From: an uncultured Pseudomonadales bacterium
GTDB lineage: Bacteria; Patescibacteriota; Microgenomatia; UBA1400; PJMF01
Length of the DNA: 64,000 nt
Reading direction: 5' to 3'
Assembly (NCBI GenBank): GCA_964653045.1
Contig: CAZZBW010000001.1
Location: forward strand, 617 to 64,616
The translations under genes were made by a program, and so were the position numbers. The first letter of the stretch is position 1, and each line of letters opens with the position of its first letter. Positions 2,106 through 54,929 of this stretch are shown in pieces. The notes under the pieces were generated by a model, which saw nothing but the letters and a program-made list of their open reading frames with translations, did no database searches and was not told the origin of the DNA.

Positions 2106-3371
2106 ATGATTGATTGGGTGAGGTTGGAAATACTAGCAGGGGATGGCGGCAGCGGCAGCATTTCTTTTCGGCGTGAGAAATACGCGCCCAAGGGTGGCCC
2201 AGATGGTGGTGATGGTGGTAATGGAGGAAGCGTGATCGTGCGTGCCACCGCCCGCCTGTCGACGCTCAATCACCTGCAAGGTAAAAAAAAGATTCAAGCG
2301 GAAAGTGGTGGTCCTGGTCAAAAGCGCAAAAAATTTGGAGCTAACGCTAAGGATTTTTATCTGGATGTGCCGGTGGGAACGCGTATTATTGTGACCGCCG
2401 AGAATCCAATTTCACGCTTTGGTGCGAAAGCACTCAAGCGCAGCAATCTGGATTTTTACTGTTATAGTCAAGAGTATGAAGATCAGATTCAGAAAAATAT
2501 TTGTCGAGTAGACCAAGATGGTTCGCTGCGGGAAAAACAAAAGCAGCTGAGTGAGGTAGCTAATGAGTTAACTCCTGAGTTTGGACTTCCCATTTCAACT
2601 GGTAAAGTGGTATGCGAACTGAACGAAGTGGGGCAAGAATTTATACTCTGCCAAGGCGGATTGGGTGGGCGAGGTAATACCCAATTTAAGTCTTCAACTT
2701 TGACCACTCCTAGAATTGCAGAATATGGCAGTGTGGGCGAGCGCAAAGAAGTGGTGTTGGAGCTGAGATTGCTGGCCGACATCGGTTTGGTCGGCCAGCC
2801 CAATGTGGGCAAGAGTAGCTTGCTCTCTGTTTTGACCGAAGCCCGACCGAAAGTGGCCAATTATCCGTTTACCACTCTTGAGCCAAACCTGGGAATTCTG
2901 ACTCAAACCGATTTGGTGATGGCTGATATCCCCGGGTTGATTGCTGGAGCACACACCGGCAAAGGCTTGGGTACGAACTTCTTGCGTCATATTGCTCACT
3001 GTCGGGTTTTATGTTTTGTCGTGGCAGTGGCGGACACTCACTTGGTAGAGGTGGCTGAAGGTCAGTTTGCATCTCCGATTGTAGAGCTCAAACAGCAATT
3101 AGAGATGCTACATTCAGAGTTGATTCAGGCCTCTCCAACTTTTCTCGATAAACCACAGATAATTATCTTGAGTAAAATTGATCTTTATCCCGAGGGTTTA
3201 ATCAAGGCGGCCAAAACCAAACTGGTTGGTAAAACAAAAACACCATTTTTTGCTGTCAGTAGCGCTAATCGCGAGGGGATAGAACAACTGCGCCAATACC
3301 TGATGGGTATTGGCGCACAACTTACTCCACAACCGGTGGTGCCTCAGGAGTTGTGGTATCACTCGGTGTAA
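2106..3371 (+). CDS. obg: GTPase Obg/CgtA with an insertion in the Obg-fold domain and no C-terminal OCT/TGS extension
   Basis: N-terminal glycine-rich Obg fold (AGDGGSGSISFRREKYAPKGGPDGGDGGNGG). G1 motif GQPNVGKSS. G2/switch region PFTTLEPNLG. About 60 extra residues between the Obg fold and the G domain compared with canonical Obg. Confidence 0.85.
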   Translation: MIDWVRLEILAGDGGSGSISFRREKYAPKGGPDGGDGGNGGSVIVRATARLSTLNHLQGKKKIQAESGGPGQKRKKFGANAKDFYLDVPVGTRIIVTAENPISRFGAKALKRSNLDFYCYSQEYEDQIQKNICRVDQDGSLREKQKQLSEVANELTPEFGLPISTGKVVCELNEVGQEFILCQGGLGGRGNTQFKSSTLTTPRIAEYGSVGERKEVVLELRLLADIGLVGQPNVGKSSLLSVLTEARPKVANYPFTTLEPNLGILTQTDLVMADIPGLIAGAHTGKGLGTNFLRHIAHCRVLCFVVAVADTHLVEVAEGQFASPIVELKQQLEMLHSELIQASPTFLDKPQIIILSKIDLYPEGLIKAAKTKLVGKTKTPFFAVSSANREGIEQLRQYLMGIGAQLTPQPVVPQELWYHSV

Positions 3372-5457
3372 CATTCGATTCTGTTTGCTGAGAATCCGGA
3401 ATTACCACGTCATTGACCGGTGGAGTATTAACTAAATCAGCAGGTTGCGTTTCCAATTGTTGATTGGTAATCGAGTTTGTTGGTGTGGTGGCTGATTCTG
3501 GCGCGGTTTCCGCTGACTCTGACTTTGGTAGCGCATCAATCTCTTTCTGTAGCGCTTCAATCTCTTGGTTCAGCTTGATGAAATCTTCCGAGCCAGAGTC
3601 AACTAGAGCCAGAGTTTGTTGATAAGAAGTCATCGATTCTTCCAATCTTTTCAACTGTCTGAGCACAACTGCCAGGTTGTAGTGAGTGTTGGGATAATCT
3701 GGCTTGATATTAATTGTTTCAGATAGAACACCGACTGCTTGTTGAGCTTGCTCGGTAGCAACTAACACTCCACCCAGAGCAATTCTGAGATTGGGATCAG
3801 TGGGATAAGTTTGGATGGCATTGATGTACGCCTGAGTTGTCCACTGGGGCGCATCTTCAGCCAAGCCAATCATATTAGAGTAAATGTTGGCTAAGACTTG
3901 CCAGTTTTGCGAATCAAGCGGATCAAGAACCGTAGCTGCCGAGGCTTCTCGCACTGCCTGTTGCAGGAGCAGGTTGATCTGTTCCTTGTCCTCATCTGAT
4001 ACCTCGGCTTTATTGGCCAGGGCGCTGGCAATCAGCAGATTGGTAAATGCGTACGAGCGTCGATTAACATCAAGATAGGGATTGAGGGTGACCGCCCGTT
4101 GTTGCAGATCGTAAACCTGAGTTGCGTCATTGTTGACAGCAGCCAGATCAGCTTTGCGAAGCAGGATTAAGGGATAGAATCCACGATAAAGACCGTAAAA
4201 ACCCGCTGCTGTGCCGGCCAAAATAACTACACAGAGGAAGTAAACTGGCAGGCTGCTGTTTTTGGCTCTGCGGTCTTCGGTGAAAGCCTCATTGATTTGA
4301 TCTCCTTTAGATGAAGTCAAGCTAATGCTCATGCCACCAACGCTAAAACTGGGCAAGTGTTTTTTATCAATTGCTACTAGAGCTGCGAGCGTTACAGCCT
4401 GGAGGGTAATGATCACCAAGTTGGCAGGGAAGAAGAAGCTAATTATGATCGAAACCAAAATTGGTGCCAGAAGAGAAGACTCTTGTGATTTTTTGATCTG
4501 AGTCAGTGAAGTCCTCGCCACTCTATAGACCAACCATAGCCAGGCCGCAACACCCAAGATACCCATGGTAGTCAGAATAGTGAGGGGTTGATTATTGGCT
4601 GTACTGAATATTAGACTCCAATCTTCTGTACCGTTCACCCAAATTGGTTTGTATTGGCGGTAACTATTGGCATAACTTTCTGGACCAGCTCCAATCAGGG
4701 CAGTTCGTGGGGCCCTGAGGTTATCAAGAGAGATCGACCAGCTGGATAAGAAAGACTGATTCTTGAGTGGAGCTGGTCCAGCCTGGCGCATACTCCAGCC
4801 ATACAAACCAATGCCGATAATCAGCAACGGCATAATTATCGCGCTAAAAATTGAGATCTTCTTCTGTTTCCAGCTTTCCCAAGCTAGATAGCTGAGTCCG
4901 AGAATCGCAATTTGAAAGCTGATCCACACTCCACCAGCAAATGAGTAATTTAGCTCGGTGGGAAGACTCAGACCAAAAAGCTGATTGTATAGTTGAGCTG
5001 GGCCGAAGCCGATCATCTGGAAGGTACTGCCCAAGACATTGATCAAACCAACTATGGCAATTGTTTTACCTACTAATTTGTGGGCGTGAGCTGGCAAGAC
5101 CTGTGCACCCAGAAGTATGATCAAACCGAAGGCAATATACGCGCCTCCCCAGCCCAATAGGTTCTCCACGGGATAACTTGACGCCATTAGTGAAGAAACA
5201 AGACTTACTACCAACAAAGCCAGAACCGGCCAGAACCAGCGAGTGAAAACCAAATCGAGGCTCTTTTTCTGCCAAGATCGTACTCCATAGATGGCTACAA
5301 CTAATAAAGCGGACGCCATCAGCGCAAAAAGCTTGGTATCCTGGACAAAATTATTGGTGAGTGGCAGGTTGATTAAGCCAGTGGCGACAACCAGTCCAAG
5401 TATTAGCCAGAGGGCGATGTGATTTATTAAAGAGGAGTGATGGGTATTGTTGAACAT
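3322..5457 (-). CDS. Polytopic membrane protein, Wzy_C/O-antigen-ligase-like, with C-terminal TPR repeats and a P/T/S-rich tail; possible pilin O-oligosaccharyltransferase
   Basis: At least 10 predicted TM helices. C-terminal TPR-like region (YINAIQTYPTDPNLRIALGGVLV...YNLAVVLRQLKRLEES). Low-complexity PT-rich tail. Lies divergently adjacent to three pilin genes. The Wzy_C assignment rests on architecture only. Confidence 0.5.
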   Translation of the reverse strand: MFNNTHHSSLINHIALWLILGLVVATGLINLPLTNNFVQDTKLFALMASALLVVAIYGVRSWQKKSLDLVFTRWFWPVLALLVVSLVSSLMASSYPVENLLGWGGAYIAFGLIILLGAQVLPAHAHKLVGKTIAIVGLINVLGSTFQMIGFGPAQLYNQLFGLSLPTELNYSFAGGVWISFQIAILGLSYLAWESWKQKKISIFSAIIMPLLIIGIGLYGWSMRQAGPAPLKNQSFLSSWSISLDNLRAPRTALIGAGPESYANSYRQYKPIWVNGTEDWSLIFSTANNQPLTILTTMGILGVAAWLWLVYRVARTSLTQIKKSQESSLLAPILVSIIISFFFPANLVIITLQAVTLAALVAIDKKHLPSFSVGGMSISLTSSKGDQINEAFTEDRRAKNSSLPVYFLCVVILAGTAAGFYGLYRGFYPLILLRKADLAAVNNDATQVYDLQQRAVTLNPYLDVNRRSYAFTNLLIASALANKAEVSDEDKEQINLLLQQAVREASAATVLDPLDSQNWQVLANIYSNMIGLAEDAPQWTTQAYINAIQTYPTDPNLRIALGGVLVATEQAQQAVGVLSETINIKPDYPNTHYNLAVVLRQLKRLEESMTSYQQTLALVDSGSEDFIKLNQEIEALQKEIDALPKSESAETAPESATTPTNSITNQQLETQPADLVNTPPVNDVVIPDSQQTESNVTPSDTTTPEAPPVVE

Positions 5458-5536
5458 GTTCTACATTAAAGCAAACTACCATACACGAAAGCAAGAGCAA
5501 AAATTCACTACGACGATGTGATAAACTGATATATAG

Positions 5537-6007
5537 ATGAAGAATATGTCGCGCGCTCGCCTGGGTTTCAGCATGATTGAGATGATGATTATCATGGCTT
5601 TGATCGGCATTCTGTCTGTCAGCATCGGTTGGCAGGTGACCAGGCAGCTAGGTCGCGCTCGCGACAGCGAGCGCAAAGATGACCTGGCCAGGATCAAGCT
5701 AGCGTTTGAGGATTACTATAATGATCATGATGAGTATCCACCAGACGATACTATTTTAACTAATTGTGGTGGTGCCCAATTAATGCCATATCTTCCAGTG
5801 ATTCCTTGTGATCCGAGCACCCACGACCCTTATCTCTACGAGCCCGATCTAGCAACTGGCGGTTATCGTGTTTACGCTATCTTGGAGAACCCTGCTGAGA
5901 AATCTGTCACAGATCTGAATTGCGGTGGCTCACAGGGATGTAATGTAACTGGTCACTCTGAGTATAATTATGGTGTGGCAGTGGGTGTGCCTGTCAGGAT
6001 GCCTTAG
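5537..6007 (+). CDS. Type IV pilin/pseudopilin-like protein with class III prepilin signal
   Basis: N-terminal RARLG|FSMIEMMIIMALIGIL matches the prepilin peptidase site (G/F, Glu at +5). Hydrophobic alpha1 helix. C-terminal cysteines (NCGG...PCDPS...NCGGSQGC). Confidence 0.7.
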   Translation: MKNMSRARLGFSMIEMMIIMALIGILSVSIGWQVTRQLGRARDSERKDDLARIKLAFEDYYNDHDEYPPDDTILTNCGGAQLMPYLPVIPCDPSTHDPYLYEPDLATGGYRVYAILENPAEKSVTDLNCGGSQGCNVTGHSEYNYGVAVGVPVRMP

Positions 6008-6045
6008 TGAGAAATAACAAGTTAAAAACTATCGATAAGGAGCAT

Positions 6046-6513
6046 ATGCGCAATTTTTCTCCAGCCAAACGGGGTTTCACCATGATCGAGATTTTGGTGG
6101 TGGTTACCATCATTGGAATTCTAATTACATTGGGAATTCGTTCGTACAACGCTACTCAAATCAAAGCTCGAGACGTTAGGCGCAAAGCGGATTTGCACAA
6201 TATAGCCAAACCCCTCGAAGCATACTTCAATGATTATGGTGTGTATCCGATAGGAGCGGGCGTGATTACCATCGGTGTTAACACAATAGATTGGGGCGAA
6301 GCATTTGTTGACGGCAATGGAACAGTCTATATGTCACAGCTTCCTGAAGACCCCAGGGGTGACAGAAATTATTGGTATGAATCTAATGGCACTGAGTGGG
6401 CAATTTCGGCGCTGCTTGAGAATGAGAATGATCCCGATAGAGCGGGACCATTTCTTGGTACAACTTGTATAGTGGCTGATGACTGTAATTATCAAGTAAC
6501 TAGTACCAACTAA
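6046..6513 (+). CDS. Type IV pilin-like protein
   Basis: KRG|FTMIEILVVVTIIGIL prepilin motif. ATG at 6046 is preceded by AAGGAG at about -7. The ORF track begins at GTG 6007 and overlaps the upstream stop. C-terminal CxxxxC pair. Confidence 0.7.
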   Translation: MRNFSPAKRGFTMIEILVVVTIIGILITLGIRSYNATQIKARDVRRKADLHNIAKPLEAYFNDYGVYPIGAGVITIGVNTIDWGEAFVDGNGTVYMSQLPEDPRGDRNYWYESNGTEWAISALLENENDPDRAGPFLGTTCIVADDCNYQVTSTN

Positions 6514-6525
6514 ATAGATAAAAAT

Positions 6526-6990
6526 ATGTTCAAACTACCCTCCAGTAAATCAGGTTTTACCCTCATCGAGCTCTTAATCGTGATTGTGATTATTGCCTTG
6601 TTATTGGGAATTCTATTACCCAATATGCTGGGGATGAGAGAGAGGGCGAGGGATAGCGAGACAAAATCAGAGTTGAGAGAGCTCAAACTGGCGGTGGAGC
6701 TCTACGCTGACGAGTTTCAAGGGTATCCAGAAGGACATGCAAATAAAATGTATGGTTGTGGCACTACACCACCGGCGATCTGTAATGATGGTGATGTTTT
6801 CAGGCGAAATGGAATAGATTTTATGCAGGAAATGCCAGATGATTATAATTATGAGCAGCCAGACTCTACCAGTTTTTACATTTGGAAACTCTTAGAGAAT
6901 GAGTCCGATCAAGATATAGAAAGAAGTTGGGCAAAGTGTGGAATTACATCGTCGCCTGACCCGCAGGCTTATTTCGAATGCAGTTTTTAA
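6526..6990 (+). CDS. Type IV pilin-like protein
   Basis: KSG|FTLIELLIVIVIIALLLGIL prepilin motif. Conserved charged segment after the helix (RERARDSE, also present in the other two pilins). Four Cys in the C-terminal half. Confidence 0.7.
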   Translation: MFKLPSSKSGFTLIELLIVIVIIALLLGILLPNMLGMRERARDSETKSELRELKLAVELYADEFQGYPEGHANKMYGCGTTPPAICNDGDVFRRNGIDFMQEMPDDYNYEQPDSTSFYIWKLLENESDQDIERSWAKCGITSSPDPQAYFECSF

Positions 6991-7059: not shown

Positions 7060-10000
7060 CTACTCAGTGAAAAACACTGCGCCATTATTGTAAACCGTCT
7101 GGATTTGGTCTTGAGTCAGGGCGTAGTTGAAGATCTGCACGTCGTCGATTTGACCGTCCCAAGTCGTTGTTGGAGAAGCTTTGCCTGCCCCAATGTACAA
7201 GTTTCCGGTTGAAGTAGTGTCGTACTTAAGGGTTTTGTTTAAGACAACCGATTTTTCCATTTGTCCATTGATATAGATTTTGGCAGTTGCTTGGTCATAG
7301 GTACAAGTTATATGAGTCCAGGTGTTGTTGGGAATATCGTTGACGCTATCAACATCAAGAGCATATGAGTTATCAGTAAAACCTAAAAAGCACTCTACCT
7401 TGTTATCATTGCTCCGGTCATAGATCATTGCATAAGAAGCGAATGGGGCGGCACCATCATTATTATATGTTTTACCAATAATCGACTTTGCTCCAGCGCT
7501 GGTTGTCGTGCGGTACACCCAAGCAGAGTAGGAGATTGAAGCAGGCTCTATAATGCTCGATCTTGGGATAGTAATAAAATCATCCGTACCATCAAAGTTA
7601 AGTGATGCGTTGAACTGCCCGGTGGCACCGTTACCCCAAGCGGTGCTTGGGGTGGAGCAGTCGCCGGCGGCGGTTTGCGCACCGCCGCCAGTCCCACCCC
7701 AAGTCCCATTTAAGTTAGCATCATATGTTTCGTTGCTGGAGTGAACCGTGGTGCCAGAGCACTCGTCCATTTTGTAATGAGCGACTGGATCACCGCGATT
7801 GTAATCCCAGGCAATCTGTGCCGGTGTACGGGCGTAGTTAAAGATTTGAACGTGATCAATTTGGCCTTCAAAAGGATAAGCTGTGTCAGAATCCCACCAA
7901 CCAGCACCAATTTCAATTTTTTCTCCTGCAAGATTGGGGGTACAATTTGAAAATTGATTCGAGGTGGTTTTTTCTTCGCCATTAATATAGATTTTTGTTG
8001 TCGAAGCTATCAATCCTGGACTTTTCACTACAGCGACGTGGTACCAATTGTTATTCTCGGTTATTACTTGTGTGCTGGTGTTTTGTCCACAAGTACCTGT
8101 ATGTAGTCCAATTCGACCACTGCCAGCGCCTGTAACACTGAGAATAATTGCTGCATGATTTCCAGTTCCTGTTACGGTTGGTAAAACACCGACAATTACC
8201 TGGTTTTCTTGTGTGTAGTCAGCGGGATTGATCCACGCCTCAAATGTTCCAGCAAAGTTTCCACTTAGTCCTGTATTGTTACCTGCATATTTAACATAAT
8301 CATTACTTCCATCAAAACTTAAAGCTTTGCCAATTTTGCCGTTTGTCCAGACGGGATCAGTAGTATCAGACCCAGAAGTTGATCCAAGCTGGCCAGTGTT
8401 GGCGTTGCCAGTCGTATCGTTGGTTACTTGGCCAGTACCCTCATCCAACTTCCACTCCGCCACAGGCGCACAACTGCCCGTACTATCTCCAGGTGGGCAG
8501 TACGAGCGGTCACTAGCATTTGAGGCTTCGCCTGACGCATCTGTTGAGAGCGCGCCCATGACGGTGGCTTTGCCCATGTTGAACTCGGCTTGGATTTGGG
8601 ACTCATCCAGAAAATGATTGTAGATTTTTAGCTCGTCGACGTTGAAGTTACTTGCATAATTTCCACCGTTTCCACCAATATAAAGAACGTCACTATAGTT
8701 ATAGACAGTTCCAGTCACTGTGGTTTCTCCCTTAAGTGAGCCGTCAACAAAAAGTCTTAGTTTTCCTGTACCTGAGTCATATTGACACACATAATGATTC
8801 CACTCTCCCAATACGCCGGAGTTATTCACAGCAAAGTTTGCGAGTGAAGTGTTTGCCAGCATACAACCGAAGCTGTTTGAGGCATTAGGTACTATTCCCC
8901 CATGAAATCCAAATTTTGCTATGGTTACTGAGTTTCCCCCATTGGCGTTTTTCTTCAACCATGCGCTGATTGAAAAAGAAGAAGTGCCTGAGTCAATCAA
9001 CCCAGGTAAATTCATCGTTGCATAATCACCATCTGGATTAGCAGCGCCATCAAACGACAATCCTTTGTCAAGTTTACTATTGTTATTCCAGCTAGGGCAG
9101 GTTGTTGCTCCAGGACAGGCTCCGCCCATATCGGCGTTATAACTACTACCCCCACTACCGGAATTGTGAAGTGTCTCGCCATAACCCTCGTCAAATTTCA
9201 AATGGACTAAGGCACTGCCCACCGGACTACCGGGCGGGGGATGCCCGGCGTTCATGTCTTCCACGATTTGTTGGGAAGTGCGGGCGTAGTTATACAACTT
9301 AATATCGTCAAGTTTTCCTTGAAAAGATCTAGTGGTGTAGTTGTAAATCGACCCACCAATCGAAAGTGGTTGACTAGTGGCAACATTGAGGACAATTGAT
9401 TGAGAGGTTTTTTGTTGACCATTTAGAAACTGCTTAATGTTCTGACCGTCATAACTGACAGTAATGTAATTCCATTCTGATAAATTGCCCGTTACTCCAG
9501 TGGCTGAAAAACCGTAGGTCTCAAAATTGAAGCTAGTATCAGTTACTCCGACCCTGGCGCTATTGTATCCACCTGACACATGAGTACCCCAGCCAATTGC
9601 AATATCTTCATAAGATTGTTGCCCCGAATCTTCTGCTTTTGCCCAGAAGCCAACGGTCCATGGTTTGTTAGAAACAACACTTTCAATAGATGCGCTAGAA
9701 TTGACGTTTAAATAATCGGCTCCATTAAACTGAAGACCAGAACTATACTGGCCAACTGTCCAACTGGATTCTGACATGGAACCTTCCATTGTTCCAACAT
9801 TATCTTTTCCTGAGTAATCAAAAGCGGATGTTCCCGTACCCTCGTCAAATTTCCAGTATCCGATTGGTCCTGGCGCCCAGTTGTAGAGAGCTTGAACTTC
9901 GGCGGGGGAGAGGGCGCGGTTGTAAACCCGAGTTTCATCAATGTTACCTTTAAAATTTTGCGAATAGGTACTATGACCTGAAGCACCTATGACAAAAGGA

Positions 10001-13000
10001 TTTGTAGTAGTCAGATCTCCAGCTGTGTCCGGAACTGTACTAACCAACGCTCCATCAAGGTAAAGGTAAAGGTTTTTTGTGTCTGAAACCATTACGCCAT
10101 GGTGCCACAATGTATCTTCAACGCTATTTGGAGAGGCCGCCGTAACTTTACTTGTGCCGTCACCAATTACCGCCTTTAACACACTTCCACCGTAGTCACG
10201 ATCAATATATAAGCTGTAACCTGGACCACTATCGTAGTTATCGCTCCATTTTTTATCAACAATCTGTTGGAAACCGGTAGAACCGGTGGATTTAAACCAA
10301 GCGGAAACTGTGAATTGATCGCTATCGGTCATGCTGAAATTATTACCGAAATTAACCACATCACCGTCTGCGTCAAACAATCCGCCATTGCTGTATTTTC
10401 CGGTACTGATGGTTGCATTGGTAGATGTTCCATTTTTACTGTTGCCGCTGCTATCTAGTACCTCACCTGAGGTACCGTTCCAGCTGGCCTCGTCCATCTT
10501 CCAGTAGCCGACCAAGCCTTGGCCGAGGGCGCCTTCGGCGCCATCACCGATGAATCCCGCGCTGATTCCTTTGACGCTGCCTCTGGCAGCGTACTCGGTC
10601 ATAATTTGAGTCGTATTTAGCGCATAGGTATAGACGCGCACCTCATCGATGAAACCTTTCCACGGATTACTACTGCCATCGCTATCGATGCCAACATAAA
10701 ATGTGGTGTTACTGCCGGACAATCCTCCTGTGGCTGTCAGTGCAGTAGTGACCATCTTCATTCCATCCACATACACATTAATACTATCTGTTTCTTTGAC
10801 CGCAGTGATGAAGTGCCACTCGGAATCGGCAAAGCTATCAGTCGAGCAAGCCGCGTCGTTTGGCCCCCAAGTGCTGTCGTCATCCACGCCAAAACAGACT
10901 TGCCCGCTGGCATTCATGTAGAGTTTGTACCCACTGGAAGAGTAACGACTGATCAGTGTTTGTTGAGCGCTGGCACCCGATGGGGCTTTAAACCAAGTTG
11001 AGACAGTGAAAGGTTTGGTAGTCGGATCGAGCTCAATGTCATTGTTGTAGGTTTTGGTCACGTAATCATTGGTGCCGTCAAACTGGAGACTTTTGCCATC
11101 TGGCGCGGAGCCGTACTCATCATCAGACCAAAGCGCCCCACTAATAGTGGCATTATTACCTTGATTGGAGCTATCGTATGCGATCTCGCCGAAACCATCG
11201 TCAAACTTCCAGAAAGCTACTGGGCCCTCCTGACCAGAAAACTGCTCAGTGTAATCAGTTTGCAGTTCGTGTGAGCCCAGGCCGGAGTAGTAGAGCGAGG
11301 CGACTTCGGAGGCGGTGAGGGAAGTTTGAAATGTTCTAAAATCAGATATATTTTGGTTTGCAATTATTGAATTGACTGTTCCGAGCCTAAAACTTGATGG
11401 AGTTGACATTGTATAGCTAGCATCAGTGCCATTAAGGCTTCCGTTTGAATAACCTCGAAGATTGGATCCGTCCCACGTAATAACATAATGCATCCATTTT
11501 TTAATTGGTGCTGCAGTTAAATTAACACTTCCGTCATTAGCGACATTAATATTAAAATCAACTTGATTAGTGCTTTGACAATTGTTCGTTGATGAAAGAA
11601 CTCTAAGAGCCCCTAAGCCTGAGCCAACATCAATCAAGCCACCTCCGTAATTCCAGCCCCTTCCTGTTCCATCCCAGCAATGATTAAGTTTTATCCAAAA
11701 AGATATTGATCCTGAGTTTTGTAAAATATTGTTTGTAGCGCTAAACGACAAATTGTCGACCTGCCTAGTGCTTGATGAATCATGCTCTGATGATAACCAG
11801 GAGTATCCAGTTCCCAAACTCCCATCAGCATACGTAGTCGCATAGGCCTTTTCCTCCAACTGCACGCCATCGATATAGATAGTTTTGCCAGAAAGAGCCT
11901 GGACGCCGTAGTTGCCGGAGGCATTTGCGGTAGCCGCTGAGTAGGAAAGTCGCCACCAGCCCCCGCCCATATCGGTATAGGCACTTGGTGTAACAACAGA
12001 GCCATTGAACACCAGCTTGGCCGCGGTGGCAGAAACCGCGCCACCCACATTACCTGTCGTGCCATCGTACACATAAGCAGATAGAGTATGAGTGTTGGTA
12101 TTGCCAGGGTTGATTGAAGTCACATACCCTCGACCATCTCCCCCAATATTGACTAATTTAGCCGAACTAGTGGCGAACTTACTGTATGGAGAAGTAGTGT
12201 TCTGAGAGGCAGAAATTGGTTCTGGGGCCAGTGCTGCATCTCCCTGATTTGCTCCGTTGGAATTTGAACCCCAGTAGGCAATGTTGGGGGCGTCGGCAAA
12301 GGTACTGGGGATAGACGACAAGGTAATCCTAGCCGTGCCGTCCACTGACAGCACCATCGTGCCGCCGCCAGTGTACGTAATTTGCATGGCATAAGTGGTG
12401 CCGGCGCTGATCGCGCCAGTGGCAGTCCAGGTAGAACTGGTGACTGTGCCGCCATTCATCTGATACTCTAGTCTCAAGGTGTTGGCGGCACTCCAGTACA
12501 GAGCAATGTAATCTGTGGCGCCACTCATCAGCTTGGCAATGTATGGAGTCGTTTCACCAAACTTGGCAACATCCGCCGCTGAGTGGCGCGGCGTGTACGA
12601 GAAATTAATCGTACCTGTGCTAGCCGTGAGTGAGGGTAGGGTATGGGTGTAGGTGTCCTTACCATCAACACGAAGTTGGTCAGATTCGGTGGAGGAAGAT
12701 AAGGAAGAGGGACTAACGATCACCATTGCAGGGTTTAAAGTGTATGAGTAAAAATCATCCCAGTCTGAAGTTGTCCCCCCACTTGCTCCAGATTGAGCCT
12801 GTCCCGAGAAGTTGTTTGAATTTACTGCTTTTACTATTCCGTTATATCTTTTCCAAACCAAGTTGCTATTTTCCGCACCCATTGAAAAACCACAGTTTGG
12901 ATCAGTTGGAGAACAGTAGTTTGTTTGCAATTGGAAACCCGTATTGTAATTACTTCGAAAGTATTGTGGGTAGGTTGGGGTTCCATAATCATATTTATAA

Positions 13001-16000
13001 AAACCAAATGAAAAAAATTGATCAGTAGTTTTTGCAATTGTTCCAGAATTTATTCCTTCATACCATGACGAGCCATCAACGTAGGTTATCTTGAACGAAC
13101 TTAGACCAGACCGGTTATTAGTTGTCTCTTGTATTCCTTCTCCAGGCTCTAAGTTACTACTGCTCCACCATGTTGGAATCCATGGATCTCCAGCTCCAAT
13201 TTCAAAAGAGGGATTTGAAAATTTATTTTCTAAAACTTCCACCTGGTGCCAGTAAGCCGTGCCGCTAGCAGCTGTGCTTACTAGTTTAATTCTTACTGTT
13301 GTTGTGGCAGTTTGGCCACCAGTTAAGTTGGTACCAGAAACTGTAGTATTGTCAGCAGTTTCTGAGAGAGCGACATTTCCAGATGCTCCAGCGTTAATTG
13401 CTGTAAGGATGATATTTCCTCCTGATGCAGCAGCAGTCACCACTGTATGTGCAGTAACACCAGTTCCGTATTTATAGTTAGTATTTAGTGTTCCAGCATT
13501 GGTAATCGCTCTGCGTAAATTATCAGCAGTATTGGTATAGGCAGCACCGATTAGTACCCAGGCCTCGCCTGGATTTGGTGTTCCGAGTAGTGAAGTTTTA
13601 AAGATGTATGTTTGTGTGTCAATAGTGACGGTTTGAGTATCGGCAGGTTGGCCAGTCATGCTAATCCATCCGCGCGCTTTACCATCCGGTGCCTCACCAG
13701 TGAACAACAGCATGTTTGGCGCGGTCCGAGTAGAAGTGGTAGTACCAGTTAGGCTGCCAATCTCTGCACCATTAGTTTGATCGAAGAGAATTAATTTAGG
13801 TACAGAAGTACCATCAGAGTGAGCTAATCCCCTGATAACAAAATCTTGTCCTGCTGTAACAGTAATGTCTTTATATATTCCTTCATTAGCAGCATCTGAA
13901 GTAACTTTGTATCCACCACCATAGATCTTCTCAGTACTAGCTAGAGCAGCTACAGAAGTAGGTGTACCTTCATCAGCAAATCCATCAGTAGTGTAAGTAC
14001 CATTAAGCATGAATCCAGCTGCACCGTTAGTGCCTCCTAATAAGTTACTCGCGTGTGGGTGGGACCACGCTTCGCCGGTGCCAGTTACGAGATTTCCTAC
14101 TGAAGAATTTGTGGGCAAGGCAAAGACAATATCCCAGGAGCCGGTAATCAGGGTGGGATCGGTGCCACCTGAGTTTTTGACTACTGTGACCTCGTCTACA
14201 CCAGCGTTGGCATTCACGCCATACATTCCATCAAATAATACACGCCGATAGATAGTCAGTCCTTCAATCAGACCAGACGCCGCCCCAGTGGTGCCATTTG
14301 AACCCACATAAATCTTGGTGGCTGGTACTGAAGCCGAAGGTTGAGTAGTAATGCCATACGTATGCGTATCGTCAATCGAGAGTGCGGCATAGTTTGTGCC
14401 ATCAAGAGTGGTTTTAGTATCCCAGCGCGCCACTAATCCTTGGGAAGTACCAGCCACAATATTTGAGGCTACAGTCATTGTTTGACCACCAGCGCCAAGT
14501 TGGTATCGGTCATTGGCGTAATCATAGGCCAGGTAATAGTTGGCGTTGGCATAATACAGATAATGAAGACCAGAACCGGATAGAGAGTTGTATGAATATT
14601 CTGGTGTCCACCACAGCGCCACCGAGCCTTGGGTAGTGTCAAAGTTGGTATAAAAATACTCACCGATAGATTTTTCGCGGTGGAAGGAGAGGGTATCATC
14701 GGTTAAACCGCTGGTGTTAGTTGGATCACCTTGAACCAGAACACCAGCGGTGAATGGACCTGAGCTGGAGCCATTACGCTTTGCCAGACTTGGGTTGGTG
14801 GGGCTAAAACGGACGTCGGCCAAGATGAATGTTGAGCCAGTGGTGGCTGGTGCGAATAAGGCATCTCCTTGTCGGTCACCTTCTTTACGCGAGCCCCAAA
14901 AGGCGAGGTAAGGCGCTACGGCAAAGTTGGCGGGGATGGTGCTCAAGGTAATGCGGGTGGTGCCAGCAACTGCTAATGTCATATTCGAACCGCCGGTGTA
15001 ATCGATCTGGATGTCGTAGGTAGTCCCAGCCACAATCGCGCCGGTAGCATTCCAAGTACTACTGCCGGTGGTGCCATTCATGCTGTAAGCCAAGGTAATA
15101 GTGTTGGCGGCATTCCAGTACAGGCGGATGTAGTCAGTGGCGGTGCCCACAAACTCAGCAATATATGCATCAGTGACCTCGATGAATTTGAGTGCATCCG
15201 CAGCTGAGTGGCGGGGAGTGTACTTGAATTTTATCGAGCCGGAACCATCGCTTAAGCTAGAGATTTCTTGAATCGCCATATCGCGGCCATCCACACGCAG
15301 GCCGGCGGTTTCAGTTGAGTTGAGTTGAGAGGAGGGAGTGAGAAATAAATTAATGTCTTGATTTTGTACCACATATAAATCATCTACCAGGGTGTATGTT
15401 GCGTAACTGGGGTGACCAAGCAAAGCAAAAGCATTGTTCCAAAGAGCTGCCCCGAACCTAGCCACTCCTTTGCTGTGTGTCCATGCAGTATCTGCTGATC
15501 CAACAGCAAACGTTGTGTTTGGAAGATGTTGAAATGTTAGAGCATTTGAGGCGTTATACGAACTAAATCTTGGAGCGTAAGATGAGGAGGTAACTTTATT
15601 AAACCCTCCAATAGAATAAAAACCGTTTGGAGATGTAAAAATATTTGTTGTCCAAATATTTTTGATATTACTCCAGCCGCTCATAAGTATTGAGTTAGCT
15701 CCACTATGAGCGTCCGCAGAGCTTGAAAGTTCTCCTACCGCAGGTCCTGGAGATCCACCACTCCAACCAGTTGGCATCCAAGGATCACCTGACCCTGATG
15801 CAAAAGAGGGATTGGTAAGTAAATTTCGTATCACCTCTACCTGATGCCAGTAAGCAATCCCAGATGCAGCAGTATTGATTAGCTTGACTCGAATAGTGGT
15901 ACATCCCGTGGGTGCCTCACCAGTAAACAACAGCATGTTTGGCGCGGTCCGAGTAGAAGTGGTAGTACCAGTTAGGCTGCCAATCTCTGCACCATTAGTT

Positions 16001-18672
16001 TGATCGAAGAGAATTAATTTAGGTACAGAAGTACCATCAGAGTGAGCTAATCCTCGTATGACAAAATCTTGTCCAGCTGTAACAGTAATGTCTTTATATA
16101 TACCTTCATTAGCTGCATCTGAAGTAACTTTATAACCACCCCCATAGATCTTTTCGGTACTAGAGAGTGCGACCACAGAACTTGGTGTACCTTCATCGGC
16201 AAAACCATCAGCAGTATAGGTGCCATTGAGCATAAACCCAGCTGCTCCATTCGTCCCTCCCAACAAGTTGCTCGCATGAGGATGTGACCAAGCTTCGCCG
16301 GTGCCAGAGCTCATGGCTCCCACACTACTATTAGTAGGCAGTGCAAACACCACATCCCAAGAACCAGTGACAAGAGTTGGGTCTTTAGAACTTGCCACAG
16401 AACCATTCCAAACTTGAGAGAGCTCATTCCCATTACCAACATCAATACCATTGGTCCCATCAAATAAGGGCCTTCTATAGATTGTTAAACCTTCAATGAT
16501 AGCGTTGGCAGGATACTGACCCAACCAGGTTGCATGACCAACCCCGCCAATTGTAAATGCTCCTGAATAGTTGTTGCTTGTAATAGCAGTTGTTCTTCCG
16601 TACGTGGTGGTGCCATTAACTGTTAGACTCAAATAGTTTGTACCATCAAGCGTATTATCAAGGTCCCATCTAGCAACAACCTGGTAGGTAGTTCCAGCAG
16701 TCCAACTAATGGGCACGCTCAGACTTTGGTTATATGCTAGGTCTAAGACTAGACTGGAAGTGTCGTGATAAACCTGGAACCAGTTGTGATGGGAGAGAAA
16801 CACATGTCTTCCCGAGCCTGCTCCAGAGTTCCATTCTGGAGTTACCCAAAAAACCACAGAACCCTGGTTTCGATCAAAGATATCACCAAACTGATTAGAA
16901 ATTACTTTTGGAGTTTGAACCTTAATCAGATCTCGTGGATACTGAGCATCCGAAGAATAACCACCTTGGACAATGGGGGCGGCGGTAAATGGGCCGGGGG
17001 CATTGCGCTTGGCGAGCGATTGACTGCCTTGGGTGAAAGTTTCAAAAGAGTTGCCCCCGGCCGACCAATTGGTATTGTAGGTAGTGTGTTCAAAGCTGGG
17101 ATTGGTGATTTTGTTGGTGGTGCCTTCTTCGATGAAAACACCTTCGTGAGAAGCATATGATTGAGATGGAGCTTTGCCAGTGTCGGTGGCGGAGGCATCG
17201 ACACCCACTAGGCCAGAAACGTACTTGGCACCGGTGATGGTGCCGTGATTAGCGTTGCCTGAATCGTCAATGGCTTTGCCAGTATTGCGTGGGTCATCGC
17301 CGTTTTCATCAAAGTGGAGGAGGAGCTTGGTGTACTCGTCACGGACGAAGGGAGTGGTTTGGGGGGTGAAGTTGGTGGCATAGCGCTTGATGTTGGAGAT
17401 TCTAACTTCATCTTGCAAACCTCTGTAATAAATACTTGATCCGGAAGCAGCACCAAGAGTAAGGTTAGACGTGTTATCAGTTGCGTATGTACCGCTACCA
17501 GCTGTTTTTGATGAATTAGATAAGACACCGTTAAGATAAATATCGCTACTTTTTGTCGTGGCATCCCACACAACGGCCCAGTGAATCCATTGATCTGAAG
17601 AAGTGCCAGAAGAGTAAGTGCGAGCATCACTGGTCAGATTCACAACAAAATCAATCATTGACGGGCTAGTTCCACCAGCCAGTCTAACAAGCCAACCCCC
17701 AGTACCTCCTTTAGAAATTAAAATAGGATAATTGCCGTTTTGAGTGTTTCTATACATCCATCCCTCAACCGTCATATCAGAATTTGGTAAATCGTCTAGA
17801 CTACCATCTGTTCCTGAATCTAATGTGTCATTGATTCCATCAAAACTCATTGCGCTTTTGGCGCCGGAGTAGCGGATGGCGCCGGTGGCGGTGGTGGGGG
17901 TTTCGGCACCGGCGCTGTTGACGCAAGTGGTATCGCCGTTGAAAGGGCAAACAAGCGTGGCTTGTTTGCCACCAACATCAAAAGCGCTGACGCTGGCTTC
18001 GGAAACGGCGGAATCGTTATCGTAGTATAAATAGTACTCAGTATCAGTAACATTATTACTCAAACTGGCTTGGAGCGGGAAGTAGAGCTTGGTCGCTTCG
18101 CTATCGCTGCAACCGGTTGTACCAGAGGCAGGATCGAAATAGTAAGCGAGCTTAGTATTGGTATTTTCATCCGGCTGGTAATAGATCCGCAGGTCAGAGC
18201 AATCGCTATTTAGATCACCAGCGTCCACCAGCTCCTTGGTATTTAGAGTAATGGAGTAGGTGGTGGTGGCGATTAAGGTTTGTCCAGAGTTGTTGATTAG
18301 GCTGAGGCGTTTACGTTTCTGCCAATCTGTGGCAGTGGTGGCCCAGGGGGCAGCCTTGGTCTGATTAGGGCGAATTAGAGTCAGGTAAACAGTTGGACCG
18401 ACCAGGAGAATCAGCGCACCCGCGAAGAGGGCCAGCTTGCGACGGTGGGCGCGCAGGCGCGCAGGAATAATTGACCACAATCGGCTATTACTTATTATTT
18501 TGAGTAACTTTGTGCCTTTTTGAGTAACTAATTTTGCTAATTTGTTCCGGATTGGTTTTGTGTGATTAAGTAACCTTGGCGCATATTTAGATACAAATAA
18601 ATGCAATTGATGGAGTAACTTAAAAAAGGATCGAGAAAAGTGGGTAGTAAATTGGGCAACGCGGTATTTCAT
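7060..18672 (-). CDS. Giant (3870 aa) membrane-anchored surface protein with CBM4/9-like modules and at least 7 LamG (concanavalin-A-like lectin) domains
   Basis: Basic N-terminus plus one TM helix (LALFAGALILLVGPTVYLTLI). Repeated NPSFE...W modules. Seven C-terminal LamG signatures (e.g. DEVRVYTYALNTTQI, DETRVYNRALSPAEVQALYN, DDVQIFNYALTQDQI). Start codon lies 1 nt after the stop of the upstream giant ORF. Confidence 0.8.
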   Translation of the reverse strand: MKYRVAQFTTHFSRSFFKLLHQLHLFVSKYAPRLLNHTKPIRNKLAKLVTQKGTKLLKIISNSRLWSIIPARLRAHRRKLALFAGALILLVGPTVYLTLIRPNQTKAAPWATTATDWQKRKRLSLINNSGQTLIATTTYSITLNTKELVDAGDLNSDCSDLRIYYQPDENTNTKLAYYFDPASGTTGCSDSEATKLYFPLQASLSNNVTDTEYYLYYDNDSAVSEASVSAFDVGGKQATLVCPFNGDTTCVNSAGAETPTTATGAIRYSGAKSAMSFDGINDTLDSGTDGSLDDLPNSDMTVEGWMYRNTQNGNYPILISKGGTGGWLVRLAGGTSPSMIDFVVNLTSDARTYSSGTSSDQWIHWAVVWDATTKSSDIYLNGVLSNSSKTAGSGTYATDNTSNLTLGAASGSSIYYRGLQDEVRISNIKRYATNFTPQTTPFVRDEYTKLLLHFDENGDDPRNTGKAIDDSGNANHGTITGAKYVSGLVGVDASATDTGKAPSQSYASHEGVFIEEGTTNKITNPSFEHTTYNTNWSAGGNSFETFTQGSQSLAKRNAPGPFTAAPIVQGGYSSDAQYPRDLIKVQTPKVISNQFGDIFDRNQGSVVFWVTPEWNSGAGSGRHVFLSHHNWFQVYHDTSSLVLDLAYNQSLSVPISWTAGTTYQVVARWDLDNTLDGTNYLSLTVNGTTTYGRTTAITSNNYSGAFTIGGVGHATWLGQYPANAIIEGLTIYRRPLFDGTNGIDVGNGNELSQVWNGSVASSKDPTLVTGSWDVVFALPTNSSVGAMSSGTGEAWSHPHASNLLGGTNGAAGFMLNGTYTADGFADEGTPSSVVALSSTEKIYGGGYKVTSDAANEGIYKDITVTAGQDFVIRGLAHSDGTSVPKLILFDQTNGAEIGSLTGTTTSTRTAPNMLLFTGEAPTGCTTIRVKLINTAASGIAYWHQVEVIRNLLTNPSFASGSGDPWMPTGWSGGSPGPAVGELSSSADAHSGANSILMSGWSNIKNIWTTNIFTSPNGFYSIGGFNKVTSSSYAPRFSSYNASNALTFQHLPNTTFAVGSADTAWTHSKGVARFGAALWNNAFALLGHPSYATYTLVDDLYVVQNQDINLFLTPSSQLNSTETAGLRVDGRDMAIQEISSLSDGSGSIKFKYTPRHSAADALKFIEVTDAYIAEFVGTATDYIRLYWNAANTITLAYSMNGTTGSSTWNATGAIVAGTTYDIQIDYTGGSNMTLAVAGTTRITLSTIPANFAVAPYLAFWGSRKEGDRQGDALFAPATTGSTFILADVRFSPTNPSLAKRNGSSSGPFTAGVLVQGDPTNTSGLTDDTLSFHREKSIGEYFYTNFDTTQGSVALWWTPEYSYNSLSGSGLHYLYYANANYYLAYDYANDRYQLGAGGQTMTVASNIVAGTSQGLVARWDTKTTLDGTNYAALSIDDTHTYGITTQPSASVPATKIYVGSNGTTGAASGLIEGLTIYRRVLFDGMYGVNANAGVDEVTVVKNSGGTDPTLITGSWDIVFALPTNSSVGNLVTGTGEAWSHPHASNLLGGTNGAAGFMLNGTYTTDGFADEGTPTSVAALASTEKIYGGGYKVTSDAANEGIYKDITVTAGQDFVIRGLAHSDGTSVPKLILFDQTNGAEIGSLTGTTTSTRTAPNMLLFTGEAPDGKARGWISMTGQPADTQTVTIDTQTYIFKTSLLGTPNPGEAWVLIGAAYTNTADNLRRAITNAGTLNTNYKYGTGVTAHTVVTAAASGGNIILTAINAGASGNVALSETADNTTVSGTNLTGGQTATTTVRIKLVSTAASGTAYWHQVEVLENKFSNPSFEIGAGDPWIPTWWSSSNLEPGEGIQETTNNRSGLSSFKITYVDGSSWYEGINSGTIAKTTDQFFSFGFYKYDYGTPTYPQYFRSNYNTGFQLQTNYCSPTDPNCGFSMGAENSNLVWKRYNGIVKAVNSNNFSGQAQSGASGGTTSDWDDFYSYTLNPAMVIVSPSSLSSSTESDQLRVDGKDTYTHTLPSLTASTGTINFSYTPRHSAADVAKFGETTPYIAKLMSGATDYIALYWSAANTLRLEYQMNGGTVTSSTWTATGAISAGTTYAMQITYTGGGTMVLSVDGTARITLSSIPSTFADAPNIAYWGSNSNGANQGDAALAPEPISASQNTTSPYSKFATSSAKLVNIGGDGRGYVTSINPGNTNTHTLSAYVYDGTTGNVGGAVSATAAKLVFNGSVVTPSAYTDMGGGWWRLSYSAATANASGNYGVQALSGKTIYIDGVQLEEKAYATTYADGSLGTGYSWLSSEHDSSSTRQVDNLSFSATNNILQNSGSISFWIKLNHCWDGTGRGWNYGGGLIDVGSGLGALRVLSSTNNCQSTNQVDFNINVANDGSVNLTAAPIKKWMHYVITWDGSNLRGYSNGSLNGTDASYTMSTPSSFRLGTVNSIIANQNISDFRTFQTSLTASEVASLYYSGLGSHELQTDYTEQFSGQEGPVAFWKFDDGFGEIAYDSSNQGNNATISGALWSDDEYGSAPDGKSLQFDGTNDYVTKTYNNDIELDPTTKPFTVSTWFKAPSGASAQQTLISRYSSSGYKLYMNASGQVCFGVDDDSTWGPNDAACSTDSFADSEWHFITAVKETDSINVYVDGMKMVTTALTATGGLSGSNTTFYVGIDSDGSSNPWKGFIDEVRVYTYALNTTQIMTEYAARGSVKGISAGFIGDGAEGALGQGLVGYWKMDEASWNGTSGEVLDSSGNSKNGTSTNATISTGKYSNGGLFDADGDVVNFGNNFSMTDSDQFTVSAWFKSTGSTGFQQIVDKKWSDNYDSGPGYSLYIDRDYGGSVLKAVIGDGTSKVTAASPNSVEDTLWHHGVMVSDTKNLYLYLDGALVSTVPDTAGDLTTTNPFVIGASGHSTYSQNFKGNIDETRVYNRALSPAEVQALYNWAPGPIGYWKFDEGTGTSAFDYSGKDNVGTMEGSMSESSWTVGQYSSGLQFNGADYLNVNSSASIESVVSNKPWTVGFWAKAEDSGQQSYEDIAIGWGTHVSGGYNSARVGVTDTSFNFETYGFSATGVTGNLSEWNYITVSYDGQNIKQFLNGQQKTSQSIVLNVATSQPLSIGGSIYNYTTRSFQGKLDDIKLYNYARTSQQIVEDMNAGHPPPGSPVGSALVHLKFDEGYGETLHNSGSGGSSYNADMGGACPGATTCPSWNNNSKLDKGLSFDGAANPDGDYATMNLPGLIDSGTSSFSISAWLKKNANGGNSVTIAKFGFHGGIVPNASNSFGCMLANTSLANFAVNNSGVLGEWNHYVCQYDSGTGKLRLFVDGSLKGETTVTGTVYNYSDVLYIGGNGGNYASNFNVDELKIYNHFLDESQIQAEFNMGKATVMGALSTDASGEASNASDRSYCPPGDSTGSCAPVAEWKLDEGTGQVTNDTTGNANTGQLGSTSGSDTTDPVWTNGKIGKALSFDGSNDYVKYAGNNTGLSGNFAGTFEAWINPADYTQENQVIVGVLPTVTGTGNHAAIILSVTGAGSGRIGLHTGTCGQNTSTQVITENNNWYHVAVVKSPGLIASTTKIYINGEEKTTSNQFSNCTPNLAGEKIEIGAGWWDSDTAYPFEGQIDHVQIFNYARTPAQIAWDYNRGDPVAHYKMDECSGTTVHSSNETYDANLNGTWGGTGGGAQTAAGDCSTPSTAWGNGATGQFNASLNFDGTDDFITIPRSSIIEPASISYSAWVYRTTTSAGAKSIIGKTYNNDGAAPFASYAMIYDRSNDNKVECFLGFTDNSYALDVDSVNDIPNNTWTHITCTYDQATAKIYINGQMEKSVVLNKTLKYDTTSTGNLYIGAGKASPTTTWDGQIDDVQIFNYALTQDQIQTVYNNGAVFFTE
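13688..14300. repeat. About 600-bp intragenic repeat in the 3870-aa gene, copy A (about 95% identical to 15912-16520)
   Basis: Both copies encode TGEAWSHPHASNLLGGTNGAAGFMLNGTYT.DGFADEGTP...KLILFDQTNGAEIGSLTGTTTSTRTAPNMLLFTGEAP with only a few substitutions. Confidence 0.75.
15912..16520. repeat. About 600-bp intragenic repeat in the 3870-aa gene, copy B
   Basis: See copy A. Confidence 0.75.
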
Positions 18673-39413: not shown

Positions 39414-40401
39414 TTTTCTTGCTGATAAGGTGTCTGCGAATAATAATTATCATAGCGACAACTACCAGCAGTGCAATGATCACGGCGAGTACTAAAGTAA
39501 TTGGGAAGAGCCAAAAGCTGAGTTTAGCAATCACGACTTTCCCTGATTGACCGTAATTCATGGTCAAAGTGGCAAAATACTTTCCCGTTCCCCAGATTTG
39601 TTCAAACTTACCATCAAATGGCCGCTCAGCCAGAGGAAAGACATTTTTTGACTCAATATTAATGCTGGCTACCTGCCGACCAAACATATTGGTAATTTCC
39701 AAGTTGATGTTGGGTTGAATATGAATGTCTGAGAGGTTCTCAACACTGAAAGAGAAAGGCACGGGACCGTACTCAGAAAAGGCTGGCATCTTAAAGTTGC
39801 GGATATATGCCTCTTCATTAATCGGTCCGTTGACGAAAACATAGAGTAGAGTGCCGACTTTTTGACTTATGCCAGACTGAGACTCGGTGAGTTGATCTAC
39901 TTCAGCACTGTCAAGCTTTTCCGGAGTGGGTTGGTGAGTGATCATGGCATAGTGACCACCTGGCAGAGCATCTGCGGGGATCTCGATCACCACTGATAAA
40001 GCCTTGACTTCATTAGCCTGAATTGTTTGTGAGTTGGGGGCGATGGTGATCCAATCAGCCAGGCTCCAGCGTGTGGAGGTTGATTCGGTAATGGGCATGG
40101 GGGTGGAACCATCGGCGCCGATCACAAAATCTTGAGCTTGAGACACAACATTTATCTGAGTGGTCGAAGAGTTTTTCACTCTAATGCTAGTTTGCAATGT
40201 TTCTCCTGGGTTACCCTTAAGAGTTCCGTCGTCACCGAGGCGAGGAGGGATAGCAGTTAGAGTCACCTGATTTTCGTCAGTAACTTGGGCGAAAACAGAA
40301 GCTAGAAAATGAGTTTTTCCCAAAAATACCAAGCCGGCAATAAACAAGGATAAGGCAAGTATTCTGGAGAGCTGGGATTTGGTTTTGTCTGGGCAGGACA
40401 T
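39349..40401 (-). CDS. Cell-surface protein with DUF916/DUF3324-like architecture (signal peptide, beta-rich ectodomains, C-terminal TM anchor plus basic tail)
   Basis: Signal peptide (LALSLFIAGLVFLG). C-terminal TM LFPITLVLAVIIALLVVVAMIIIIRRHLISKK. Internal ...IPADALPGGHYAMIT motif paralogous to the 41974-42966 product. Confidence 0.55.
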   Translation of the reverse strand: MSCPDKTKSQLSRILALSLFIAGLVFLGKTHFLASVFAQVTDENQVTLTAIPPRLGDDGTLKGNPGETLQTSIRVKNSSTTQINVVSQAQDFVIGADGSTPMPITESTSTRWSLADWITIAPNSQTIQANEVKALSVVIEIPADALPGGHYAMITHQPTPEKLDSAEVDQLTESQSGISQKVGTLLYVFVNGPINEEAYIRNFKMPAFSEYGPVPFSFSVENLSDIHIQPNINLEITNMFGRQVASINIESKNVFPLAERPFDGKFEQIWGTGKYFATLTMNYGQSGKVVIAKLSFWLFPITLVLAVIIALLVVVAMIIIIRRHLISKKNDQSARIKELENKLQDLEKKA

Positions 40402-40424
40402 ATTTGGCTTAAAGTTAATATTTA

Positions 40425-41903: not shown

Positions 41904-41973
41904 ATTTTGACAACAAAAAATCTGCTAATTCGTCCATTGTAGTCAGGTCAATGGATACTTTGCAATAGGCAAT

Positions 41974-42966: not shown

Positions 42967-42969
42967 TTA

Positions 42970-43746: not shown

Positions 43747-43769
43747 ACAATTTACCCAATTTGCTTGTG

Positions 43770-54928: not shown

Positions 54929-54929
54929 G

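Follow-up and report, generated by a model that had tools for sequence, protein, structure and literature searches.

The 64,000-nt stretch of contig CAZZBW010000001.1 analysed here (the window) carries, next to three tandem type IV pilin genes, a divergently transcribed gene for a polytopic membrane protein of 711 amino acids (aa), and the question raised by this locus is what that protein does and on which acceptor it acts. The initial annotation had proposed a candidate pilin O-glycosylation module, in which the membrane protein would resemble ligases of the Wzy_C family and bear a periplasmic TPR domain. We checked the coordinates and found the four open reading frames (ORFs) where they had been placed: the membrane-protein gene at 3322-5457 on the minus strand, and the genes for pilins 1, 2 and 3 at 5537-6007, 6007-6513 and 6526-6990 on the plus strand, with a spacer of 79 bp (5458-5536) between the diverging genes. 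The 711-aa protein falls into a clade of the WaaL/Wzy_C (GT-C_B) superfamily that is large and unannotated and forms a new variant, a WaaL fold without the catalytic His being fused to an external TPR domain. As for its function, the reading that we would tentatively put first, short of calling it probable, is that of a non-canonical WaaL-fold glycan transferase acting on neighbouring surface proteins.

Searches with the protein itself reveal little of this kinship. Direct Pfam and NCBIfam scans of the full 711-aa protein and of its membrane domain gave TPR matches only (listing threshold E ≤ 1); the weak NCBIfam matches were to PgaA, PrsT and VpsP. The search of 3322-5457 with hidden Markov models (HMMs) that the initial annotation had suggested matched neither Wzy_C (PF04932) nor PglL_A (PF15864) at that threshold; the annotation had named a lack of such homology as evidence against its own proposal, and as far as this one search goes, a lack is what we found. 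A word-indexed protein search returned about 10 full-length relatives, with annotation never going beyond TPR, and the full-length profile (A1) retrieved TPR proteins only among the sequences of the PDB. When a 60-sequence family profile was compared by hhalign with E. coli WaaL as a single sequence, no meaningful alignment resulted.

It is the relatives that provide the connection. An exhaustive search with a profile restricted to the membrane domain yielded 4031 cluster representatives at the family threshold of E ≤ 1e-3 (394 at E ≤ 1e-30), nearly all of them about 700 aa long. Twelve of the 60 family members sampled for alignment A3 match Wzy_C (best E-value 5.8e-8), and in a more canonical subgroup nine out of 10 do so, with E-values from 1e-4 to 8e-7 and over the same region (profile positions ~20-148); at 21-29 bits, the Wzy_C scores of the relatives are below the gathering score of 31.7 bits. 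The 711-aa protein has the WaaL-type GT-C_B membrane fold. The resemblance to Wzy_C thus stands for the fold and by transitive homology, but not for the HMM search of the protein proposed to establish it. The match to the SEDS proteins RodA and FtsW is far weaker than that to WaaL; these have no TPR domain and other conserved residues, and there is no gene for a PBP partner near the 711-aa gene. The clade members with a named source organism are all from Patescibacteria, and their only database label is “TPR repeat protein”.

The membrane domain (aa 1-425; 4183-5457, minus strand) is followed by a TPR domain (aa ~445-642; 3532-4125, minus strand), which matches Pfam TPR_17, TPR_11 and TPR_19 above threshold and is modelled by AlphaFold2 (AF2) as helical repeats. 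Basic residues are clustered in the loops 62-74, 121-131, 196-204, 313-330 and 363-402, and there are none in the short loops 93-102, 149-176 and 342-347. Taken together, the AF2 helices and this positive-inside pattern indicate a topology with 11 transmembrane (TM) helices, the N-terminus in the cytoplasm and the C-terminus outside, by which both the large loop 223-289 (4591-4791, minus strand) and the TPR domain are predicted to lie outside, in keeping with the placement given to the TPR domain in the initial annotation. The protein ends in a tail rich in Pro, Thr, Ser and Glu (aa 645-711; 3325-3525, minus strand), modelled as disordered (AF2 local confidence, pLDDT, below 30), which carries a SIT[NDE]Q motif; S662, T664 and Q666 are invariant in an alignment of seven relatives down to 34% identity (A4).

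The large extracytoplasmic loop is the equivalent of the active-site loop of Wzy_C proteins, judging from the A3 column counts and from the Wzy_C profile on the matching region of more canonical members. In E. coli WaaL, the signature at its end is H338-N-x9-G-xx-G; in the window protein it reads N288-N289-x9-G299-xx-G302 (4552-4596, minus strand; translation TANNQPLTILTTMGILGV). E. coli H338 and the family equivalents share position 130 of the Wzy_C profile, and the register H[NSQ]x9Gxx[GTY] is kept in the 711-aa protein, with Asn288 replacing the catalytic His. The roles of the WaaL catalytic residues are taken here from secondary sources: R215, R288 and H338 of the E. coli enzyme correspond to R224, R298 and H349 of PglL (PMC3643930), and the His mutants TfpM H286A and PglS H324A are inactive (PMC9829042, PMC12800693). 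In A3, family column 288 holds Ser in 24 members, Arg in 12, Thr in seven, Ala in six and Asn in three, with His in a single member (P0152).

The remainder of the site is far from variable. G299 is invariant and G302 nearly so; G256, G258, P271 and N275 are invariant within the loop, with D245, [KR]248, [KR]270 and W280 near-invariant, the two [KR] positions being the other conserved basic positions there. Five of the seven invariant columns (G256, G258, P271, N275 and G299) fall within aa 256-299, that is, in the active-site loop and the next helix, which speaks for a binding or catalytic site that has been retained; the residue pattern of the ligase loop suggests remodelling of the site and not decay. 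In the AF2 models, the block-mean pLDDT of aa 224-287 is 52-67 when the TPR domain is present versus 35-47 for the membrane domain alone, a rise in confidence which hints that the TPR domain may pack onto the loop.

Loss of the catalytic His, and probable loss of the R288 equivalent, could alternatively signify a pseudo-enzyme, i.e., a WaaL-derived scaffold dead in catalysis, whose TPR domain would organise or anchor a giant protein and/or the pilus in the way that PilF, PilW and Tgl serve pilus biogenesis; the tight pairing of the gene with that of a membrane-anchored giant protein (detailed below) would suit such a role. We consider this distinctly unlikely: the former active-site loop shows the strongest conservation anywhere in the protein, which would be unexpected in a dead site; the TPR matches are unspecific and score far under the family cut-offs; and the targets of PilF, PilW and Tgl are secretins of the outer membrane, which would be missing from Patescibacteria, presumed to have no outer membrane.

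If the 711-aa protein is a transferase for surface proteins, as we tentatively favour, the pilins are one candidate acceptor. The initial annotation rightly saw genuine prepilins in the three small proteins, each with the class III signal G/F-x-x-x-E ahead of a hydrophobic α1 helix: all score above the 21.2-bit cut-off of Pfam N_methyl (PF07963; 22.7, 29.7 and 34.2 bits for pilins 1, 2 and 3, respectively) and above that of TIGR02532, all resemble GspG in NCBIfam, and all match pilins in the PDB. The closest likeness to GspG/ComGC is shown by pilin 3 (154 aa), which scores 48.6 bits with GspG. Residue 1 of Geobacter PilA-N, Thermus PilA, GspG and Neisseria PilE aligns to F11, F24 and F11 of pilins 1, 2 and 3 (phmmer versus PDB, E from 1e-7 to 1e-11), which fixes the G/F cleavage sites (the slash marks the cut) behind the leaders MKNMSRARLG/FSMIE (pilin 1; 156 aa, mature form ~146 aa), MRNFSPAKRG/FTMIE (pilin 2; 168 aa as listed) and MFKLPSSKSG/FTLIE (pilin 3). 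The listed start codon of pilin 2 is a GTG overlapping the stop codon of pilin 1 by 1 nt; from the start-site sequence, the true start is probably the ATG at 6046, situated behind an AAGGAG (6037-6042), which would give a 10-aa leader as in pilins 1 and 3.

Across 27 related loci, pilins 1 to 3 form three separate orthologue groups, which have a GspG-type motif E-x-Y-x-x-D-x-x-x-Y-P in common. The C-terminal cysteines remarked upon in the initial annotation are kept as pairs in each group: two conserved pairs in pilin 1, one in pilin 2 (C131/C137) and a C-terminal one in pilin 3. In pilin 2, S143, T144 and N145 are conserved as well; its orthologues in loci L001 to L052 keep C-x5-C-N followed by T-S-[ST]-N (window 6440-6513). 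Many pilin 2 orthologues are extended at the C-terminus by a variable stretch rich in Ser, Thr and Pro, reminiscent of O-glycosylation sites. The pilins themselves are ordinary.

As the initial annotation had stated for pilus assembly genes, no match of PilB, PilC or PilM-Q type was found in the larger ORFs of the window scanned with Pfam, the 2249-aa ORF at 55530-62279 lying outside that scan. The window includes DNA-uptake genes for ComEA (SLBB and HHH_3 domains) and ComEC at 47161-50103 on the plus strand; the latter is split into an ORF with the Competence domain (47906-49231) and one with the metallo-beta-lactamase domain (49228-50103), overlapping by 4 nt. Locus L057, which encodes a distantly homologous TPR membrane protein, has the same ComEA/ComEC set beside that gene (7521-9981), and from the presence of these genes in both places, the pilins could belong to a competence-type pilus.

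How far the pilins and the membrane protein belong together can be judged from the related loci, of which we collected 45, taking one genome per species. The records that name the lineage correctly are from Patescibacteria (Woesebacteria, Pacebacteria), the nearest being a metagenome-assembled genome of Woesebacteria with 88% identity. Of the 45 loci, 37 have at least one divergent pilin gene upstream of the membrane-protein gene, and about 25 have all three. Downstream, the genes for Obg (43/45), an M23 peptidase (42/45) and Rho (41/45) flank nearly every locus, the gaps being on short contigs, so that much of the gene order is backbone synteny; all 37 pilin-bearing loci are among those with Rho-M23-Obg. 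Counting absences only where the flank is long enough, pilins are missing from at least six loci (L011, L017, L029, L035, L047 and L048) and from a distant subgroup (L006, L056, L057 and L058). The pairing with pilins proposed in the initial annotation is consequently real as adjacency and usual amongst relatives, but weaker than it appears, given the backbone synteny and the pilin-less loci.

A second neighbour is more faithful. The pilin array is convergent, as the initial annotation noted, with the gene for a giant surface protein: giant 1 (7060-18672, minus strand) specifies 3870 aa with a signal-anchor and at least nine Laminin_G_3 (LamG) domains (Pfam E 6e-166 over nine stretches). The next gene, for giant 2 (18674-36256, minus strand; 5860 aa), encodes a Phage_int_SAM_1-like domain, a TM helix, a huge ectodomain and a conserved C-terminal domain (Pfam; tblastn). 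In most related loci with enough flank, a giant gene is located upstream of the membrane-protein gene and co-directional with it. By tblastn, the C-terminal domain of giant 2 ends beside the pilins or the membrane-protein gene in L001, L003, L005, L011, L014, L023, L025, L029 and L035; L006, with a membrane protein of only 27% identity, has a homologue of this domain at 34% identity. In L011, L025, L029, L035 and L048, all without pilins, the giant gene directly abuts the membrane-protein gene, with gaps of 58-222 bp; in L048, it is the LamG giant (orthologous to giant 1) that does so, across 58 bp, and a LamG giant is likewise present in L057, from the distant subgroup. In L058, a gene for a 292-aa protein with a Phage_int_SAM_1-like domain and a TM helix (3937-4815) overlaps the start codon of the membrane-protein gene by 8 bp. 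Of the neighbours of the membrane-protein gene, giant 2 persists best across related genomes, better than the pilins. The membrane-protein gene itself forms the constant end of a conserved block of surface-appendage genes, in which it is preceded by the giant gene(s) and, usually, by the pilin triplet on the opposite strand.

Only the last ~400 aa of giant 2 (18674-20200) are widely conserved; they are without a Pfam match and end in ...LVYITP...NQVLYV...FNWW(I/V)(V/I)N. In many loci, among them L006 (1979-2482), the gene preceding that of the TPR membrane protein terminates in this same C-terminal domain. In the N-terminal part of giant 2 (35057-36256), the cytoplasmic Phage_int_SAM_1-like domain occupies aa 92-171 (E 2.5e-7) and precedes a TM helix spanning aa ~263-285. 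That a giant surface protein should have a DNA-binding fold of integrase type on its inner side is an oddity; domain and TM helix recur in the 292-aa protein of L058.

With these data, a strict version of the pilin hypothesis can be assessed, in which the 711-aa protein would be a PglL/TfpO-type pilin O-oligosaccharyltransferase (OTase), transferring an undecaprenyl pyrophosphate-linked oligosaccharide onto Ser or Thr of the pilin by an Arg/Arg/His mechanism. The likeness to PglL, PglS, TfpO (PilO) and TfpM is considerable: they share the superfamily fold and an extra extracytoplasmic C-terminal domain, and, as in pilin-dedicated O-OTases, the gene is next to pilin genes, here 79 bp from pilin 1 in a divergent arrangement with three pilins kept in most of the 45 relatives. 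The genes for PglL, TfpO and TfpM commonly adjoin pilin genes, with 21 of 31 PglL homologues encoded beside one (PMC3643930), and the Ser/Thr-rich C-terminus of pilin 2, right after the disulfide loop, is like that of TfpO and TfpM acceptors (PMC9829042). Yet a Wzy_C domain and an indispensable His (H349, H324 and H286 in PglL, PglS and TfpM) are common to all known members, whereas the 711-aa protein has neither: the equivalent of His338/349 is Asn288, in a family column that is overwhelmingly non-His, and PF04932 is as absent from its matches as PF15864 of PglL. Its C-terminal domain is a TPR domain; its gene is divergent from the pilins, in contrast to tfpO, tfpM and pglS, which are downstream, co-oriented and co-transcribed; and it persists without them in at least six relatives as well as in the distant subgroup. 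In this strict form, the explanation seems to us quite improbable. What survives of the proposed pilin O-glycosylation module are its real pilins and the predicted outside position of the TPR domain; the Wzy_C/PglL match and the catalytic His are wanting, and the link to the pilins is looser than supposed.

The steadiness of the backbone genes raises another alternative, namely a Wzy-like polymerase or a ligase for an envelope glycopolymer (capsule-like or wall-linked), in which the outer TPR domain would handle the polymer or partner proteins, and the proximity of pilins and giants would be inherited synteny without a direct functional link. Nearly all 45 loci contain Rho-M23-Obg, a steadier presence than the pilins, the Wzy_C superfamily includes polymerases that are independent of the ligase His, and TPR domains are common in exopolysaccharide machinery, to which the weak PgaA, PrsT and VpsP matches may be added. 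Moreover, L058 has genes for LytR_C, an RmlD-type epimerase and an NTP-transferase within 10 kb. Against this, neither in the window nor in most loci do genes for glycan synthesis, Wzx or chain-length control adjoin, and the giant neighbour is kept down to 27% identity with short co-directional gaps, which would be unexpected under pure drift. We regard this alternative as somewhat unlikely.

The non-canonical glycan transferase for neighbouring surface proteins, to which we give tentative preference, would operate as follows. The conserved loop would bind a glycan linked to polyprenyl-(pyro)phosphate, the phosphates of which could be held by [KR]248 and [KR]270, and the glycan would pass to at least one of the adjacently encoded surface proteins, with the TPR domain docking the acceptor. 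Because Asn replaces the canonical catalytic His, another residue would have to serve as the base in such a mechanism; D245, E98 and N275 would be candidates for this role. As an acceptor, the giant protein is no weaker a candidate than the pilins, since gene-order conservation supports it equally well or better.

A number of observations weigh against this reading. The 711-aa protein itself is without a significant Wzy_C or PglL_A match (Pfam, E ≤ 1), and the membrane-domain profiles A2 and A5 found nothing among the PDB sequences with hmmsearch, even at E ≤ 10. The catalytic His is Asn288, and the position equivalent to WaaL R288, as located by counting 15 residues back from the loop Pro and not by superposition, is F, L or S rather than basic in both subgroups. 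The loop is modelled at low confidence by AF2 (pLDDT 52-67 in the full-length model and <50 in the membrane-only one). With Rho, M23 and Obg in nearly all 45 loci, the gene order may reflect inherited synteny and not function, and no gene for a glycosyltransferase, a flippase or a sugar-nucleotide enzyme was found among the window ORFs scanned with Pfam. Polysaccharide export proteins likewise contain TPR domains, so that the domain is no proof of a protein acceptor. The missing His would also fit a polymerase-like role or that of a non-catalytic scaffold.

Comparison with characterised systems puts the proposed transferase at some distance from each of them. WaaL (PF04932; GT-C_B; structures 7TPJ/7TPG) has the large extracytoplasmic loop before the helix bearing xN-x9-G-xx-G in the same profile register, and it is the relatives of the 711-aa protein that match its Wzy_C domain, not significantly the protein itself, in which the His is Asn. 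WaaL has 12 TM helices with both ends inside, unlike the 11 TM helices and outside TPR domain predicted here, and its lipid A-core/lipopolysaccharide acceptor is absent from the lineage hosting the 711-aa protein. In overall architecture, the 711-aa protein is almost identical to TfpW, an arabinosyltransferase/oligosaccharyltransferase of Pseudomonas aeruginosa group IV pilins, which glycosylates its pilin, is encoded next to pilA and has its N-terminus inside, 11 TM helices and a periplasmic TPR domain (bioRxiv 10.1101/2020.04.19.049825); like the protein studied here, it is about 650-710 aa long, with the TPR domain at the C-terminus. The model of TfpW is based on ArnT (GT-C_A), and a DDX motif in its periplasmic loop 1 is essential, whereas the 711-aa protein is WaaL-like (GT-C_B), with no ArnT-type match and no DDX in loop 1. 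Given the different fold class and the missing motif, the likeness is one of convergent architecture, and homology with TfpW was rejected. A pilotin of the PilF/PilW type was rejected too, the TPR similarity being generic and no secretin being expected in bacteria without an outer membrane.

WsaB and WsfB are O-oligosaccharyltransferases of the Wzy_C superfamily that modify S-layer proteins in Gram-positive bacteria, i.e., without an outer membrane (see the review PMC2943079). Set beside the 711-aa protein by description rather than by sequence, they offer a precedent for reading a large surface protein as the acceptor; unlike it, they are encoded within clusters for S-layer glycan biosynthesis, which the window does not contain.

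The locus bears on how Patescibacteria attach. Pili and giant surface proteins are the presumed tools of host attachment in this group. The family described here, with its 4031 cluster representatives, is a concrete and widespread candidate enzyme with residues that can be mutated and with two candidate acceptors; pilin glycosylation in Patescibacteria has so far been predicted only, with no enzyme proposed (PMC11623550). In its most far-reaching form, the proposal would define a new class of protein glycan-transferase, with a His-independent site on a WaaL scaffold and acceptor docking by a TPR domain, decorating or maturing the giant surface proteins and type IV pili used by the ultrasmall Patescibacteria for host attachment, which as a whole we hold to be rather unlikely. 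If the 711-aa protein is active without the His, the accepted mechanism of the WaaL/PglL scaffold would be broader than thought; if it is inactive, the family would be a plain example of a scaffold derived from an enzyme fold. Either way, the locus advises caution in inferring function from gene adjacency where whole neighbourhoods are syntenic.

Some features of the surrounding sequence are worth recording. Within 3289-3371 of the window, the ends of the convergent obg and membrane-protein genes overlap by 50 nt; a terminator-like hairpin with a 12-bp stem (3289-3317, minus strand) is located just past the stop codon of the latter, inside the 3′ end of obg. A promoter scan found no consensus sigma-70 match in the 79-bp divergent spacer. 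The window is unusually rich in cell-surface genes: besides the giants, a run of six genes on the minus strand (37791-44471) specifies signal-anchored or C-terminally anchored surface proteins, with Pfam matches to Big_13/SdrD_B and weakly to a WxL-interacting-protein domain, and four members without any Pfam match. In the stretch 54896-55307, a PIN-domain gene (54930-55307, plus strand) sits between ndk and the 2249-aa ORF and is overlapped nearly completely by a 127-aa ORF on the opposite strand. Judging from gene content and from a Rho that is 75-83% identical, the organism names under which many records with a locus of this Patescibacteria type appear (L010, L011, L014, L016 and others; “uncultured Pseudomonadales bacterium”, “Methylococcaceae” or “Vitreimonas”) are apparently wrong.

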